Part shown: positions 56,571 to 63,793 of the stretch, in pieces
How the letters are laid out: the number at the start of each line of letters is the position of its first letter
Position numbering within the stretch: the first letter of the stretch is position 1
From: Candidatus Poribacteria bacterium
GTDB lineage: Bacteria; Poribacteria; WGA-4E; PCPOR2b
Direction of reading: 5' to 3'
Assembly (NCBI GenBank): GCA_965215015.1
Contig: OZ244042.1
Location: forward strand, 1,152,001 to 1,216,000
DNA: 64,000 bases
Notes under the pieces: generated by a model
Database searches by the model: none
Told to the model about the DNA's origin: nothing
The model's input: only the letters and a program-made list of their open reading frames with translations
Position numbers and translations under genes: made by a program

Positions 56571-57524
56571 TCAACCTTGCTTGACTAACTTCTGAAGGGA
56601 GCGAAGTTCTCTGGGCGGATCCATCTGGCTGCCATAGTCACTCCAGGAGACCTCAGCAACGTAGATATTTCCCTTAGAGTCAACGGCGATTCCGTGGGGT
56701 GAGTAGAATCGTCCGGGCTCATCGCCGTAGGATTGATCGCTCAGTTGCGCCAATATGCGCCCCTTGGTGTCCATGATGCTGACGCGGGGTCCCAGACAAG
56801 TGCCCATTGCATTTGACGCAATGCCACCGAAGTACTCACCCACGTAAACTAACGGTTCATCTCTGGTGTCCAGACAGATACAAGCAGCCCTGGATAGGTT
56901 TAACCACTGCGTTTCATACTTCCCGTCAGGAGAGAATACCTGCACCCGATGATTCTCACGGTCAGCAATGTATACCCAGCCATCTTTATCGGTGGTGATA
57001 TTATGGACGATGTTGAATTGTCCCTCAGCCGTGCCTGACTCGCCCCAAGAGAACAAAAAGCGTCCATCGGGCGTAAATTTGTGGACCCGTGCGTTGCTGT
57101 ATCCATCAGCCACATACAGGTCACCGCTACGCGGATCAATTGCCAAATGCGTTGGAAGGTTAAAGGGTTCGCCGCTCATAGGGGAGGAAGGTTGATTGGG
57201 TTGACCGAGAGTCATCAACAATTTCCCATCCGGTGTAAACTGACGAACGGTGTGGTCTCCATTATCTACGCAATAGACCGAACCGTCGGGCCCAATGGTT
57301 ACACCGTGTGGATTGGCGAATATGCCATCCCCCCATGTCCGAAGTACATCACCCTCAGAGTTGAAAATAACCATCGGATGTGTTCCACGATTAAAGACAT
57401 AAACATTATCCTCCACATCAACAGCAACGGCAGTAGCTTCTTTGTAAGTCCAATCTTCGGGTATATTGCCCCAGTCTTCTCCCGATACTTGATATGTAAA
57501 ATCTCCAGTCCCTAAAGTAACCAT
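56571..57524 (-). CDS. NHL-repeat (peptidyl-alpha-hydroxyglycine lyase-like) protein
   Basis: PHG, FNLPT, YVADGYSNARV, ADRENHRVQ repeats. Confidence 0.88.
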   Translation of the reverse strand: MVTLGTGDFTYQVSGEDWGNIPEDWTYKEATAVAVDVEDNVYVFNRGTHPMVIFNSEGDVLRTWGDGIFANPHGVTIGPDGSVYCVDNGDHTVRQFTPDGKLLMTLGQPNQPSSPMSGEPFNLPTHLAIDPRSGDLYVADGYSNARVHKFTPDGRFLFSWGESGTAEGQFNIVHNITTDKDGWVYIADRENHRVQVFSPDGKYETQWLNLSRAACICLDTRDEPLVYVGEYFGGIASNAMGTCLGPRVSIMDTKGRILAQLSDQSYGDEPGRFYSPHGIAVDSKGNIYVAEVSWSDYGSQMDPPRELRSLQKLVKQG

Positions 57525-58777: not shown

Positions 58778-59842
58778 CTAATCCCCAGCCGGATAAGCCC
58801 CTAAGATTTTCACTAGTACGCAAAACTCTTCAATTTCTGTAAGTGCTTTTCGGACATTTTCATCCTCCGCGTGCCCCTCCAAATCTACAAAGAAAACATA
58901 CTCCCACGCTTTGGTACGAGAGGGCAGGGATTCAATCTTGCTCATATTAATTGCATAGTTTTTCAAAACCTGCAACACCTCCCATAATGCGCCAACCTTA
59001 TCCTTAACCGCGAAAAGGATAGATGTTCGGTCGTTTCCAGTTCGTGCCGCCGAGTGACTCCCAATAACAAGGAAGCGCGTCGTGTTATTTGGTCCATCCA
59101 TGATCGATTCCCCCACTACAGACAGCCCATAAATCTCGCCGGCGAGTTGACCCGCTATTGCTGCCGTATTTGGCTCACTGGCTGCCAGTTCCGCCGCTTC
59201 TGATGTGCTGGGAACCTCAATCTGTTGTACACCTGATATATTTTGACCGATCCATTGACGACATTGGGCGAAAGCCTGCGGATGGGAATAAATCTTTTGA
59301 ATCTGGGCGAGGGGGGATTTTGAGAGGAGATGCTGCTCGATCGGCAAGAAGCACTCCCCGCAAATTTGAAGGGATGTGTACTGAAACATCTCTAAAACAT
59401 CACGGACCGTTCCATACGTAGAATTTTCGATCGCGACAACACCATAATCCGCTTGACCGGATTCCACAGTCGCAAAGATGTCGGGTTGGGGCGTCACCGC
59501 GATAAACTTGACTGACTGGCCAAAGAGGTGCGAACCCACCGTGTGACCAAAACTACCAACGGGACCGAGGAAGGCAATGGATAGCGGCCTTTCGAGCGCA
59601 CGACAGGCAGAGATAATCTCAGTATAAATAGTGCGTAGGGCGTCGGCAGGGAATTGCCCTCGGTTCTGCATTTCCAACCGAGAGAGAATTTCCCGCTCTC
59701 GATGCGGCGCATAAATCTGTTCAACGCCGGTGCGCGATTTCAGCTCACCGACACGTTTGACAATAGTCGCCCGTTCCTGTAAAAGGGCTAAAATCTGGTC
59801 ATCAATCTGATCTAGCAGATTGCGGTAGTCTTTTAATTTCAT
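58778..59842 (-). CDS. pheA: Chorismate mutase/prephenate dehydratase
   Basis: N-terminal CM domain, FLGP, IENST, SHPQAFAQC, NTTRF, IESLPS ACT domain. Confidence 0.95.
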   Translation of the reverse strand: MKLKDYRNLLDQIDDQILALLQERATIVKRVGELKSRTGVEQIYAPHREREILSRLEMQNRGQFPADALRTIYTEIISACRALERPLSIAFLGPVGSFGHTVGSHLFGQSVKFIAVTPQPDIFATVESGQADYGVVAIENSTYGTVRDVLEMFQYTSLQICGECFLPIEQHLLSKSPLAQIQKIYSHPQAFAQCRQWIGQNISGVQQIEVPSTSEAAELAASEPNTAAIAGQLAGEIYGLSVVGESIMDGPNNTTRFLVIGSHSAARTGNDRTSILFAVKDKVGALWEVLQVLKNYAINMSKIESLPSRTKAWEYVFFVDLEGHAEDENVRKALTEIEEFCVLVKILGAYPAGD

Positions 59843-59867
59843 AATAGCTGCGTCAAACGCTATCTCC

Positions 59868-60047
59868 TAATCCGTATTCCCTACAAGAAAGTGTGGACGC
59901 TCTCCTGTTTCGGTATTCCAGATACGGATTTTGATCCCAACTCCGACCGACGAGTATGCGACCCTCCGGACCAAAAACGATGCTCAAGACATGGCTCTCA
60001 TGCCCGGTGAGCACTCTGATTTCCTCGCCTGTTTTAACGTTCGACAG
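59868..60047 (-). pseudogene. WD40-repeat protein remnant
   Basis: Reverse strand reads KTGEEIRVLTGHESHVLSIVFGPEGRILVGRSWD, then frameshifted IRIWNTETGE. Confidence 0.65.
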
Positions 60048-60235
60048 GCGGGTTATCTTGTGCAGCTATTTGATAGAAATAGTGCAGAGATTAGCAATAA
60101 AATGAGGCTAAGAAACATCGTCTTTTGCATTGAGATTAATTTTCCGTTAGGAATCGGAGCAGGTTGAGCGCAGCGAAATCCCGATGTCTCGGGAGAGATT
60201 GCTGCCCGCTCCCCTGCTCGCCGTTTCAATACTTA

Positions 60236-60478
60236 TCAATTGAGCTTCTGCATCGCGGCAATCATATCGTCGTCTGACGGATTGCTTTTCACCATCTCAA
60301 CAAACTCGTCAGCGTCTAGCTTGTGTTCCTCCAGGAACTTTTTGTCCTGCGGTCACGGATAGATGTATTCACCGATAGTACCGTTCAATTTGGCACGCGC
60401 CTTATCTGTAACCCGCGCCAACCACCAGTACCCGCCAATGAGCATATCTCGATGACGTGGTTTCCAATCGAGTCCCAT
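60236..60478 (-). CDS. DUF5069-like small protein with in-frame TGA (candidate selenoprotein, 80 aa)
   Basis: AAAGGAGGTG SD; MGLDWKPRHRDMLIGGYWWLARVTDKARAKLNGTIGEYIYP-TGA-PQDKKFLEEHKLDADEFVEMVKSNPSDDDMIAAMQKLN-TGA-TAA; hairpin 14 nt after the TGA. Confidence 0.75.
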
Positions 60479-60601
60479 GTAATTCACCTCCTTTACGTCA
60501 GTCTCAAACCCAGAAGCCGAACTCCTAAAAGACAGGATAACGGAGATACCAACGATACACCCGTCTCATTTTCACGTCTACTCGTCCTCTCGTTTTCAGG
60601 C

Positions 60602-63600
60602 TTATTGGACGTCCGCCTCAATCTGCTTCAAGGTCGCTTCAAGGAGATTAAGGTAACGTCCATATTCCGCCCAATTTCCTGTGCGTTGTGCTGCTTGTGC
60701 CGCCTCAAACTGCTCCCGCGCCTGTTTTGCCAATGCCGAAATAGATATCGATTCGGTGGCACTCACCCCTTCGGCGGCTTCATCAGCGGATAGAATATCT
60801 TGCGTCAGCGCGCCCTCCAACCGCTTGCCGAACATGTTAATCAACGCCTCATCAAGGCTCGCCCCCCATGCGACATTCTCCTTATAGCCCACAACAACGC
60901 GACGCAATTCAGGAATTGCGGCTTCTTCGTTCTCCGCTTGGATATAGATTGGCTCAACATAGAGAATCGCCTCATTCATTGGGATAATAAGTAGGTTACC
61001 GCGCAGGACGCGTGAACCCTGTGTATTCCACAAGCTAATCTGCTGGGAAATTCCAGGTTCTTGCGTAATGAAATTTTCCACCTGCATCGGTCCAGGGGCG
61101 AGCTTTCCCTTCGGGAACCGATAGACAAGCAGTTGTCCATACTGCGGTAAATCGCATCGCGCAGCAATCCAAGCGGTAAGATTCGGCTTGTTTTTCGGTG
61201 TGAAGGGGAGCATCAGAACAAATTCCGCACGTTCCTCTCCCGGTATCTTGACAACCACATAGTAAGGCGCAACCTCTTGCACATTTGTGACCGTCTCCGG
61301 CAATTGTTGGGTACGAGCAAATGGACTTGGGGGTTGCGGTGCCTGAGCGGGACGAAGACGCTCAGTGTTATCGTAAAGCTCCTCACCAATCTGCCACTGG
61401 TCTTCACTCGCGTAGAACGTTATCGGATCCTTCATGTGATAATCCTGATACATTTGCGCCTGAATGCGAAACATGGTAGTCGGATAGCGGATATGCGCCT
61501 TGAGATCTGCGGGCATCTCATCGAACGATTTGAATAAGTCGGGGAAGATACGGCGATAACACTCCGCAACCGGATCTTGCTCCTGCTCCATCAGATAGAA
61601 ATTCACGCTGCCATCGTAGGCATCAATCGTGACTTTGGCGGCGTTGCGGATATAATTTCCCCACGGCCTTTCGCCACCGACGACGCGCCCCGCAGCGCGT
61701 CTGCCGCCCTGTTCCGCAATGGTTCTGCGGATGGCATCCTGCATCGGTGCGGAATAGGGATAGCGGGCGGTCGTTGTATAAGCATCAATCATCCAGATCA
61801 GCCGACCGTTGTGGATGACAAGGTACGGGTCAACATCATATTTCAGGAATGGGGCGATTTGGTTGACGCGCTCTTTTATGTTTCGATTGTAGAGAACCCG
61901 ACTCGTTGATTGGATTTCACCGGGCAGGATGAAATTGAGCGCGTTGTTGAATTTCAGCATGTACGCAAACTTTCGCAAGAACGAAGAGAGTTTGACACCC
62001 CCCTCGCCTTGGTAAGAGTATTTGGCGAAATCTTGTCCAAACGTTTCGGGGTAATCAAACTCAAGGCTCTCTAATCGGTCTGGGTGGACGATGACATAAT
62101 GGTTGGTGCGCTCGCCGTAGTAAATTCGGGGACCAGGGTTGTCGTTAAACCGATATGACCATTCAGGTTCGTAATTGATTGGATCCATATCTCGAATGTA
62201 CATCTTCGGCTTCCCGTCCAGGATTTCGTTCACAGGACTTAGCACTGCTCCATAGCCGTGGGTATAGACGTAAGTGCGCTTAAACCAGTCCCGACTCACT
62301 TCACGGTCCAAATCGTTGATATTCAGTTCACGCCCGGCAAGCATCACCTGTCGAGGTTCACCGCTTTCCATCGTGTAACGATCGATATCTACGTCGGGAA
62401 AATCGTATTGTGAACGCAACTCCTGCAGCTGGCGGAAAGTTCGCCGCAGCGGACGCCAATCCCAAAGCCGGATGCTGTTAATCACCGCCGCATTCTCCTG
62501 CCCCGTGATGTTATCATAAGACAATTCCCCCATCAAAGGGTACTCCGTCTCTGTCACGGTGCTATCCTCCAAATCATACGCGTGCAGCGTTGCCCTGATA
62601 TTATAGTTGATATATCTGCTCTCAAGTTCCTGCTTACTCGGTTCAACTTTCAGCTTTTGAACGATACGGGGATAAGCTTGTCCCATAAAGGCAACAAGTA
62701 TCAGAACAATAACGCTCCCAACAGCGAAGGAGATACGTCGTAGAAAGATGCTGATGAAGAAGATCAGCGCACAGGCGGTGGTCAGCGCGAGCAGTATCCA
62801 TAACACAGGCAGCCGTGCCTGTATCGCTGCGTAACCGCCCCCACTCCGCACAACATCGTTGGTCGTGTAGAGCAGGTCATACATCACAAACTGATAGTTC
62901 CATGCACGAAACAGCAATGTCAACCCAATCAGTATAAACAGATGAGTCTTGACGCGCTGCGGCGGTGCGAAGCGGTTATCCTCATTAATGAGTAGTCCGT
63001 GAAAAAAGTAGAGTACCCCCGTAAACAGGGTGACTAACATGAATAGACCGAAAAGATAACCACAGATCAGCCGTTCCAAGGGCATCCGAAAAACATAGTA
63101 GCTGACATTCTTATTGAAAACGGGATCCCGCGCAGTGCCGACCAAAACCGCATCTTCAGTAGCATCGAAGCTAAGCCCTTGGTTTAATGCAATTCTAACG
63201 CTCCCATCACCAGCCGGACTTATCGAGCGGATTTTCGCGCTATGACTGCTATCTTCCTCTTCGATTGTAACCGCATCCCCTACTTTAAGTCCTTTTGCAC
63301 TATATTCCAATTCAGAAATAAGGACCTCTGTCGTATCCCGATTTGCCGGTGCATCGAGCGACGTTGCGGATTGAAAGGAAAGATTACTAGCGTTTGAATA
63401 GCGGAGAAATTGCTCCCAGTAGTCTGTCGAGGCATAACCGCCCACGATACTCCCTCCAATCGCCAAGAGTGTCAGTACCACATAAACAGCTTTTCGGAGG
63501 TTAAAATCGGGCATCCCTTCAAGGGGGATCGATTCGACCAGCGTTGGACTCAGTCGAGGGGGGGTAAAGCGATACAGCAGATAGAGATTGGTGAGGGTTA

Positions 63601-63793
63601 CCGCAAGAAAGAAACCACCGACAACAATTCCCAACCCTATTTTTGTCAGTAGCACCTTTTTGTAAATGGCGAGATAGCCGACCATATCAAACCAGAGCAG
63701 GTCGGGATAGATTTTGACGAACAGCGCACCCCCGCCAATAATTACTACTAGAACAACAAGGGTAATAATCAATCGAGTCAAGTTTGCTTGCAT
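60602..63793 (-). CDS. UPF0182 family membrane protein
   Basis: LWFDMVGY, DPVFNKNVSYYVF, IRLWD, DIDRY, YTHGYG, PRIYYGE, NYIRN, RGNLLIIP..LYVEPIY. Confidence 0.93.
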   Translation of the reverse strand: MQANLTRLIITLVVLVVIIGGGALFVKIYPDLLWFDMVGYLAIYKKVLLTKIGLGIVVGGFFLAVTLTNLYLLYRFTPPRLSPTLVESIPLEGMPDFNLRKAVYVVLTLLAIGGSIVGGYASTDYWEQFLRYSNASNLSFQSATSLDAPANRDTTEVLISELEYSAKGLKVGDAVTIEEEDSSHSAKIRSISPAGDGSVRIALNQGLSFDATEDAVLVGTARDPVFNKNVSYYVFRMPLERLICGYLFGLFMLVTLFTGVLYFFHGLLINEDNRFAPPQRVKTHLFILIGLTLLFRAWNYQFVMYDLLYTTNDVVRSGGGYAAIQARLPVLWILLALTTACALIFFISIFLRRISFAVGSVIVLILVAFMGQAYPRIVQKLKVEPSKQELESRYINYNIRATLHAYDLEDSTVTETEYPLMGELSYDNITGQENAAVINSIRLWDWRPLRRTFRQLQELRSQYDFPDVDIDRYTMESGEPRQVMLAGRELNINDLDREVSRDWFKRTYVYTHGYGAVLSPVNEILDGKPKMYIRDMDPINYEPEWSYRFNDNPGPRIYYGERTNHYVIVHPDRLESLEFDYPETFGQDFAKYSYQGEGGVKLSSFLRKFAYMLKFNNALNFILPGEIQSTSRVLYNRNIKERVNQIAPFLKYDVDPYLVIHNGRLIWMIDAYTTTARYPYSAPMQDAIRRTIAEQGGRRAAGRVVGGERPWGNYIRNAAKVTIDAYDGSVNFYLMEQEQDPVAECYRRIFPDLFKSFDEMPADLKAHIRYPTTMFRIQAQMYQDYHMKDPITFYASEDQWQIGEELYDNTERLRPAQAPQPPSPFARTQQLPETVTNVQEVAPYYVVVKIPGEERAEFVLMLPFTPKNKPNLTAWIAARCDLPQYGQLLVYRFPKGKLAPGPMQVENFITQEPGISQQISLWNTQGSRVLRGNLLIIPMNEAILYVEPIYIQAENEEAAIPELRRVVVGYKENVAWGASLDEALINMFGKRLEGALTQDILSADEAAEGVSATESISISALAKQAREQFEAAQAAQRTGNWAEYGRYLNLLEATLKQIEADVQ

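Follow-up and report, generated by a model that had tools for sequence, protein, structure and literature searches.

Whether two short open reading frames separated by a TGA codon make up a single gene, in which the TGA is read as selenocysteine (Sec), is the question raised by positions 60236 to 60478 on the minus strand of the DNA analyzed here. The whole stretch (hereinafter referred to as the window) comprises 64,000 nucleotides of contig OZ244042.1 from a Candidatus Poribacteria bacterium (assembly GCA_965215015.1, positions 1,152,001 to 1,216,000). An earlier note, made from the sequence alone, had described in this interval a Shine-Dalgarno (SD) motif, an ATG at 60478, 41 codons, an in-frame TGA, 38 more codons, and a TGA-TAA double stop, and all of its coordinates were correct (Table 1). 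Codons 1 to 41 were open, as were codons 43 to 80 (38 sense codons past TGA 60355-60353), and AGGAGGTGA ahead of the ATG was retained in most of the orthologues whose sequences were displayed. Neither half reached 60 residues, and the gene was thus missing from the list of open reading frames (ORFs), as the note had also stated. The sequence evidence presented below indicates that this locus is very probably a genuine Sec-decoded gene, whose product would be an 80-residue selenoprotein of the DUF5069 family.

DUF5069 domain and conservation on both sides of the UGA codon

The read-through protein (P0001) matched the Pfam family DUF5069 (PF16798) with 60.6 bits (cut-off 27; E = 2.2e-16), and residues 7 to 77 were aligned to profile positions 4 to 74 of 133, a single domain bridging the TGA. 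When the source genome was searched with the DUF5069 profile, the locus scored 54.8 bits with one TGA inside. A search with the orthologue profile retrieved one solved structure, 3omd_A ('uncharacterized protein', 145 residues; E = 6.2e-19), and the Cys of its Y-N-C-P-L-D motif was aligned with the TGA codon. The Pfam match across the TGA was in agreement with the DUF5069 pattern given in the earlier note, which had placed the TGA on the cysteine of a Cys-Pro pair. The motif around Sec42 in the window protein was Y-P-U-P-x-D, the residue being flanked by invariant Tyr, Pro, and Asp. Profile positions 75 to 133 were unmatched, short of the full length of PF16798, and 3omd ran about 60 residues further. 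The window protein is thus a member of a short-form DUF5069 subfamily, corresponding to the N-terminal core of the 3OMD fold.

The orthologue was detected in 168 of the 176 genomes of the phylum at E ≤1e-16. The eight non-matching genomes comprised two from family f2, both 81% complete, three from f5, and three from other classes. Codon 42 was TGA in 160 of the 168 genomes, and the remaining eight, all of family f8, contained no stop; all eight distinct f8 sequences read TGC or TGT at this codon. Among the nearest 41 genomes (4 families, 13 genera), every one carried the orthologue (66–99% identity) with exactly one TGA, and the TGA lay at the same codon in the orthologue translations displayed. 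The best 80 of 579 related loci comprised 78 from Candidatus or uncultured Poribacteria and two from 'uncultured bacterium', with relatives of 99% identity among the Poribacteria records. The gene selA was retained in all five f8 genomes tested, and the Cys form is therefore not due to loss of the Sec trait. The pairing of Cys and TGA at one column with conservation on both sides, which the earlier note had proposed as a check, was thus found across related genomes, and Cys was carried by the f8 orthologues, by metagenomic short forms, and by 3OMD.

Substitution rates were compared among 43 TGA-form coding sequences (CDSs); L052, which has a one-codon insertion, and pairs with <15% nucleotide divergence were excluded, leaving 678 pairs. 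Synonymous (pS) and nonsynonymous (pN) differences were 0.758 and 0.157 for codons 2 to 41, and 0.778 and 0.202 for codons 43 to 79 minus codons 47 to 52. For codons 47 to 52, which contain the hairpin described below, they were 0.166 and 0.067. By these rates, the region past the TGA appears to evolve like translated protein, with purifying selection on both halves.

By exact look-up, the gene appears in public records with a product of 41 residues, named either 'hypothetical protein' or 'DUF5069 domain-containing protein [Candidatus Poribacteria bacterium]'. One 41-residue sequence was found on 180 contigs, and the halves were listed separately in one Poribacteria metagenome-assembled genome (MAG), with 41 and 40 residues (MDE0186092.1 and MDE0186091.1; P0168 and P0170). 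Such products, together with the fact that TGA is an ordinary stop in the source genome, would fit a UGA 42 that is a true stop, ending a 41-residue peptide or separating two small independent ORFs. However, the TGA lies within a single Pfam domain, the Cys orthologues and 3OMD show no break at this point, and the 37 codons past the TGA showed the same pS/pN as those before it. In addition, most orthologues have no start codon right past the TGA and continue with P-Q/A-D-K, and the frame is retained in 160 genomes. A true stop is thus highly improbable.

The same evidence bears on a pseudogene or an assembly error private to the source genome, for which only the bare presence of a stop codon speaks. 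The TGA occurs in 160 genomes of at least four families, and a contig from an independent study (run X5), covering 60100 to 60620, differed at seven positions, none of them in the TGA; the differences listed within the gene (60365 and 60407) were both at synonymous third positions. Both halves are under purifying selection as well, and this explanation, whose probability was practically nil, was regarded as refuted. The earlier note had named a TGA private to this assembly with nothing conserved downstream, or reads with TGC or TGT in its place, as grounds for abandoning the reading; instead, the TGA was found in 160 genomes and in the independent contig, with a pN of 0.202 downstream. No RNA run was listed among the sequencing runs containing the stretch, which says nothing about expression.

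The TGA-TAA double stop at 60233-60238 was private to the source genome. In the other 40 orthologues displayed, codon 81 was a sense codon (Arg, Gln, or others) and the stop after it was TAA or TAG. In the source genome, codon 81 has turned into TGA immediately ahead of the old TAA, leaving the protein one residue shorter.

The hairpin past the UGA and the selenocysteine machinery

A short palindrome followed the UGA. After 14 nt, GTTCC (60338-60334), a loop of TGGA (60333-60330), and GGAAC (60329-60325) were found, the loop starting 19 nt from the UGA and carrying G as its second and third bases; the sequence, coordinates, and distance claimed in the earlier note for this candidate Sec insertion sequence (SECIS) were borne out. 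The same palindrome was recovered at 60325-60338 by a pattern scan on the opposite strand. The hairpin presumably fits the published bacterial SECIS criteria.

An RNAalifold consensus of 31 distinct 48-nt stretches consisted of exactly the 5-bp stem, with one compensatory change from G-C to A-U in L052, where a Val insertion and a His-to-Tyr replacement extended the stem to 7 bp. Codons 48 to 51 (TTC CTG GAG GAA) were invariant in all 40 distinct CDSs, in which two to six codons were used at other invariant positions of Leu, Pro, Ala, and Phe, and synonymous change was approximately 4.6-fold suppressed at the hairpin (678 pairs). The coupling between hairpin and TGA was analyzed in 108 distinct orthologue contexts from 135 loci, 100 with TGA and eight with Cys. 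The hairpin was kept in all 100 TGA contexts (99 with the exact core, and L110 with a C-to-T change that retained a G.U pair), and its core was lost in all eight Cys contexts. The F-L-E-E motif encoded there drifted in the Cys forms to FLER, WLRK, FLKQ, FLEK, WLQK, and FLQR. The contrast between TGA forms, with an invariant hairpin and a frozen F-L-E-E, and Cys forms, with no hairpin and a variable motif, points to a SECIS that constrains the protein sequence, and is well suited to testing selenoprotein gene finders.

Hairpins were also found past the TGA of selD, of several Prx genes, and of the Rdx and CMD genes in the same genome (Table 1). By our reading of the computed folds, these had stems of 5–8 bp and loops of 3–6 nt, with G in the first two loop positions and the loop starting 17–24 nt after the UGA. 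The window hairpin, with 5 bp, a UGGA loop, and a distance of 19 nt, was alike. On sequence comparison, the hairpin behaves as a SECIS and is both selected for and coupled to the UGA.

Several observations weigh against this assignment. The stem is only 5 bp long and its consensus folding energy is -5.6 kcal/mol, and minimum free energy (MFE) folds of single sequences often favoured a competing pairing. No Rfam family, the bacterial SECIS included, matched 59500-61000 even at E-values up to 10, apart from five unrelated sub-threshold matches. True covariation was limited to one compensatory pair and one wobble. Little covariation was seen because the hairpin is almost invariant, and the RNA argument thus rests on the scarcity of synonymous differences and on the link between hairpin and TGA.

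The palindrome, followed by TTTTTG, scored as terminator-like on the plus strand, where two such sites were found vs. 0.8 expected; the hairpin might thus serve as a plus-strand terminator or an attenuator and not as a SECIS. We consider this very unlikely, since no plus-strand gene ends nearby, the stem is present in 100/100 TGA forms and 0/8 Cys forms, and the spacing and loop match those of the other SECIS elements of the source genome. The plus-strand terminator was rejected because the neighbouring genes pheA and UPF0182 lie on the minus strand and the stem is lost exactly where TGA is replaced by TGC or TGT.

The absence of Sec machinery, which the earlier note had listed as an objection to its own proposal, was not the case in this genome. 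The genes selD (369 bits, with its own in-frame TGA), selA (610 bits), and selB (371 bits) all scored above the NCBIfam cut-offs. The gene selA adjoins selB, and a tRNA-SeC(tca) lies approximately 110 nt past selB (C1:4766553-4766646; ARAGORN). One TGA each was present in six of the 15 AhpC-TSA matches, in one of two for CMD, and in the only match for Rdx (SelW-like). At least nine other TGA-bearing members of known selenoprotein families were identified in the source genome, which by its gene content is rich in selenoproteins. According to PMC5649159, SelA and SelB are found together in the majority of bins from sponge symbionts, and PMC13582414 includes Poribacteria among the phyla with Sec-containing group 4 hydrogenases.

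The full-length versions of the protein in public records, 81 residues long, were products of metagenome gene callers with W at the site (code-4 calls). These would be consistent with reading through of the UGA without Sec, by near-cognate Trp, Cys, or Gly or by a lineage-specific reassignment. In contrast, TGA terminates 467 of 1,399 open frames of at least 400 codons, a third of these long frames, and is therefore not reassigned. Moreover, the genome has the complete Sec machinery and the further TGA-bearing genes, the homologous residue is Cys, the usual counterpart of Sec, and a hairpin tied to the TGA is a requirement of SelB-dependent decoding. Little probability was thus left for non-Sec reading.

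For the Sec-decoded gene, translation would start at ATG 60478. SelB and tRNA-Sec, recruited by the in-frame SECIS hairpin (60338-60325) with its 5-bp stem and 4-nt loop, 14 nt past the UGA, would insert selenocysteine at UGA 60355-60353. Translation would end at UGA-UAA (60238-60233), and the product would be a mostly helical protein of 80 residues.

The DUF5069 family and its Sec/Cys position

The residue at column 42 was compared across 171 aligned DUF5069 domains, drawn from the best 150 representatives of 828 matches. Cys was found in 116 and Ser in 33, W occurred in two, and the position was absent from seven (cut at the TGA). Cys is the commonest residue at this column, yet it is not universal. 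The Ser-bearing domains were mostly in tandem multi-domain proteins.

Metagenomic proteins fell into three groups: those with W at the site (code-4 gene calls), those ending in ...YIYP, and true Cys forms, including P0009, P0013, P0014, and P0024. The f8 Cys orthologues and the metagenomic short forms (those four and L165-L213) belong to the same length class (80–135 residues) and share the N-terminal W-K-P-R, D-K-A-R-A, and Y-x-Y-P-C-P-x-D motifs with the window protein. They differ from it in that the TGA is replaced by TGC or TGT, the hairpin is absent, and the F-L-E-E motif varies.

As a separate observation, the source genome encodes a two-domain DUF5069 paralogue (G000:C1:48101-48925; L018, L019) in a 289-residue frame, with Ser at the Sec column (G-E-D-S-G), and two- and three-domain versions of 285–457 residues were found in the genomes of relatives. 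A further set of metagenomic proteins with other N-terminal motifs (P0022, P0102, P0109, P0139, P0073, and P0154) ended at ...Y-x-Y-P or had W there; one group of these kept K-K-F-L-E-E and had a Cys twin in L210. Sequence comparison suggests that Sec forms may exist in lineages outside the Poribacteria orthologue group. A query of the ESM Atlas with P0017 returned only DUF5069 clusters (Verrucomicrobiota and Poribacteria) and no functional lead.

The earlier note had been uncertain about novelty. No NCBIfam model (release 20.0) matched the read-through protein at E-values up to 1. A literature search returned no paper naming DUF5069 or PF16798, and the matches listed for 3OMD all concerned other meanings of the string. 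Searches on selenoproteomes and sponges returned nothing relevant, and those on Poribacteria together with selenocysteine or selenoproteins returned none on this gene. PF16798 is absent from the 119 selenoprotein families and subfamilies with domain identifiers in Table 1 of a 2026 review (PMC13188914). DUF5069 is not among the nine new families of deep-Sep in the accessible part of that paper (PMC12013277), and no mention of DUF5069, PF16798, or Poribacteria was found in the supplementary file searched for BSepDB (PMC13326102), which is possibly incomplete. As far as these sources go, DUF5069 is unreported as a selenoprotein family; the inventory of 119 families, NCBIfam, and the literature together point to a new one.

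Among the families in Table 1 of PMC13188914, single-Sec families such as the SelW-like/Rdx, HesB-like, and UGSC-containing ones are close in kind. They share the decoding by an in-frame UGA and an in-CDS SECIS via SelB, and they are also small and uncharacterised, with Cys homologues. In contrast, the window protein has another motif, without UxxC/CxxU, and apparently another fold, with no thioredoxin-like match above Z = 3.7.

The gene would thus add a family of selenoproteins overlooked by present inventories and annotation pipelines. It is near-universal in this candidate phylum, whose members are sponge symbionts, but is represented in public records by 41-residue fragments. Moreover, the Sec/Cys pair points to the residue at this column as probably the active site of DUF5069, a family with a structure (3OMD) and no function, and the function of DUF5069 thereby becomes testable.

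Predicted structure, gene neighbourhood, and possible function

An AlphaFold2 model of the protein (16-row alignment A1) had a pLDDT of 77.8 and a pTM of 0.67, with predicted helices at residues 20-32, 43-51, 56-65, and 69-79, and residue 42 lay just ahead of the second helix. In Foldseek, 3omd was matched with an E-value of 2.7e-3 and a TM-score of 0.82 by query, and nothing was found at E ≤0.001. VIA-align gave Z = 10.7 for 3omd, with an rmsd of 3.0 over 79 residues and 42% identity. PDB 3OMD ('unknown function protein from Leptospirillum rubarum') is therefore of the same DUF5069 family and fold, and it differs in its length (145 vs. 80 residues, the window protein being without the C-terminal half) and in having Cys rather than Sec. 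Beyond 3omd, VIA-align matches reached Z ≤3.7 and were mostly TetR- or LuxR-type helix-turn-helix domains, a level that amounts to noise for a helical model of this small size. No thioredoxin-fold chain was found above Z = 3.7, and absence from the match list does not exclude a family.

The genes on either side of the selenoprotein gene are given in Table 1. Seventeen further Poribacteria loci were laid out and 13 of their downstream ORFs were scanned; pheA lay directly downstream in all 13, including four f8 Cys-form loci, and the ACT domain was also matched at the threshold used in 12 of these 13 pheA genes. The other four loci had an ORF of 354–381 residues at this position. With the window included, the DUF5069-pheA pair was thus present in 14 of 14 Poribacteria loci examined. 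The upstream gene varied: it encoded UPF0182 (approximately 1,060 residues) in f1 to f3, a GFO_IDH_MocA oxidoreductase in f6 and f9, and another protein in f8. In f4, it encoded a 408-residue fusion of glutaredoxin and pyridine-nucleotide-disulfide-oxidoreductase (Grx-TrxR), which was confirmed in L153:4262-5485 (-) and L154:2752-3975 (+); the ORF in L155 was of the same size. This fusion is a possible redox partner of the DUF5069 protein.

Outside the phylum, pheA adjoined one of 80 metagenomic Cys short-form loci (L204), and L204 and the f8 locus L147 encode identical proteins, i.e., L204 is of the Poribacteria f8 type. The other metagenomic neighbours, for which 50 of 86 ORFs were scanned, were mixed, including NIF3, MaoC, glyoxalase, NHL, and GFO_IDH_MocA proteins and many without a family, and no shared theme was found among the ORFs scanned.

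Table 1. Features of the selenoprotein locus in the window, its neighbours, and comparable genes elsewhere in the source genome.
Feature	Coordinates	Strand	Basis
Shine-Dalgarno motif AAAGGAGGTG	60485..60494	-	Read from sequence; 6 nt between motif and ATG 60478
Start codon ATG	60478-60476	-	Read from sequence
CDS, putative 80-residue DUF5069-family selenoprotein (Sec codon 42)	60239..60478	-	Translation, Pfam, orthologues, pS/pN
UGA codon 42, predicted to be read as selenocysteine	60353..60355	-	TGA in 160 genomes, Cys in f8
Predicted SECIS hairpin GUUCC-UGGA-GGAAC, in-CDS, codons 47-52	60325..60338	-	Conservation, fold, TGA coupling
Terminal stop TGA, then TAA	60238-60236, 60235-60233	-	Read from sequence
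pheA (chorismate mutase - prephenate dehydratase - ACT), downstream neighbour	58778..59842	-	Pfam CM_2 + PDT + ACT
UPF0182 family gene, upstream neighbour	60602..63793	-	Pfam UPF0182, E = 5.7e-239; not conserved across families
Own-genome genes with TGA and hairpin outside the window (Prx-like, CMD/AhpD-like, Rdx, selD)	G000:C1:5599224-5600045, 2692529-2692921, 2801177-2801560, 5639612-5639992, 4567523-4567912, 5655296-5655454, 5383547-5383762, 3518779-3519699		

Selenocysteine takes the place of Cys almost exclusively where the residue is reactive, in most cases in redox chemistry (PMC13188914, section 7). A residue just before a helix start often has a lowered thiol pKa. The invariant Tyr, Pro, and Asp around residue 42 and the Grx-TrxR fusion beside the gene in one family also speak for a redox role. 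Sec42 would be a reactive residue of this kind, most likely a redox-active selenol, and the protein may be a single-Cys-type oxidoreductase or sensor without a thioredoxin fold. We regard a redox function of the DUF5069 selenoprotein as evenly balanced. The residues at column 42 speak against it, with Ser in 33 and Cys in only 116 of the 171 domains. Sec42 is, moreover, the sole Cys or Sec in the 80 residues of the translation, and there is neither a resolving Cys nor a UxxC or CxxU motif. Foldseek and VIA-align found no thioredoxin-like or other known redox fold, and the gene neighbourhoods outside Poribacteria are heterogeneous. The earlier note had inferred both Sec insertion and a redox or metal-binding residue; the former was upheld by the machinery, the conserved UGA, and the hairpin, and the latter was weakened somewhat by the Ser-bearing domains.

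Alternatively, Sec42 might be a residue that binds a ligand (a metal or selenium), or part of a small partner protein with a regulatory effect on the P-protein PheA. The constant pairing with pheA while the upstream gene varies would suit such a role, as would Ser in place of Cys in a part of the family, a single Sec with no resolving Cys, and structural echoes beyond 3OMD that are limited to weak helix-turn-helix-like matches (Z ≤3.7). Against this, pheA adjoins just one of the metagenomic Cys short-form loci, itself of the Poribacteria f8 type, the upstream gene in f4 is the glutaredoxin-thioredoxin-reductase fusion, and the great majority of Sec residues in known families are redox-active (PMC13188914, section 7). 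We consider a ligand-binding or PheA-related role unlikely, albeit with some weight.

In Poribacteria, the selenoprotein gene may be co-transcribed with pheA. A more far-reaching proposal is that DUF5069 forms an unrecognised four-helix, non-thioredoxin class of selenol/thiol redox proteins, whose reactive residue is marked by the Sec/Cys pair, and that the Sec form of Poribacteria is an operon partner of PheA coupling aromatic amino-acid synthesis to the redox or selenium status in the sponge host. This combination is speculative and rather improbable.

The spacer between the selenoprotein gene and pheA was approximately 30–50 nt in f4 and f8 vs. 393 nt in the window (59843-60235). No terminator-like site was found on the minus strand between the two genes by the pattern scan, and a Phe-type leader or riboswitch was sought between them and none was found. 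The window spacer folded better than shuffled sequences (z = -3.58). It contained a 25-codon ORF that, on reading the sequence, resembles a signal peptide (60056-60130), and a 53-codon ORF with a sub-threshold WD40 match (19.5 bits vs. 27; E = 0.0015). These ORFs are probably the remains of an inserted gene. A match to 'COG3860 RNA' below the Rfam threshold was located at 60157-60208, and a 33-nt piece (60161-60193) matched an otherwise unrelated contig in run X7. Further, a gene for an NHL-repeat/SGL-like beta-propeller protein lies two genes downstream in the window (56571-57524, minus strand), and a similar beta-propeller gene was found directly downstream of the Cys short forms in L188 (L188:3502-4917) and L195 (L195:3366-4532), which may be a coincidence.

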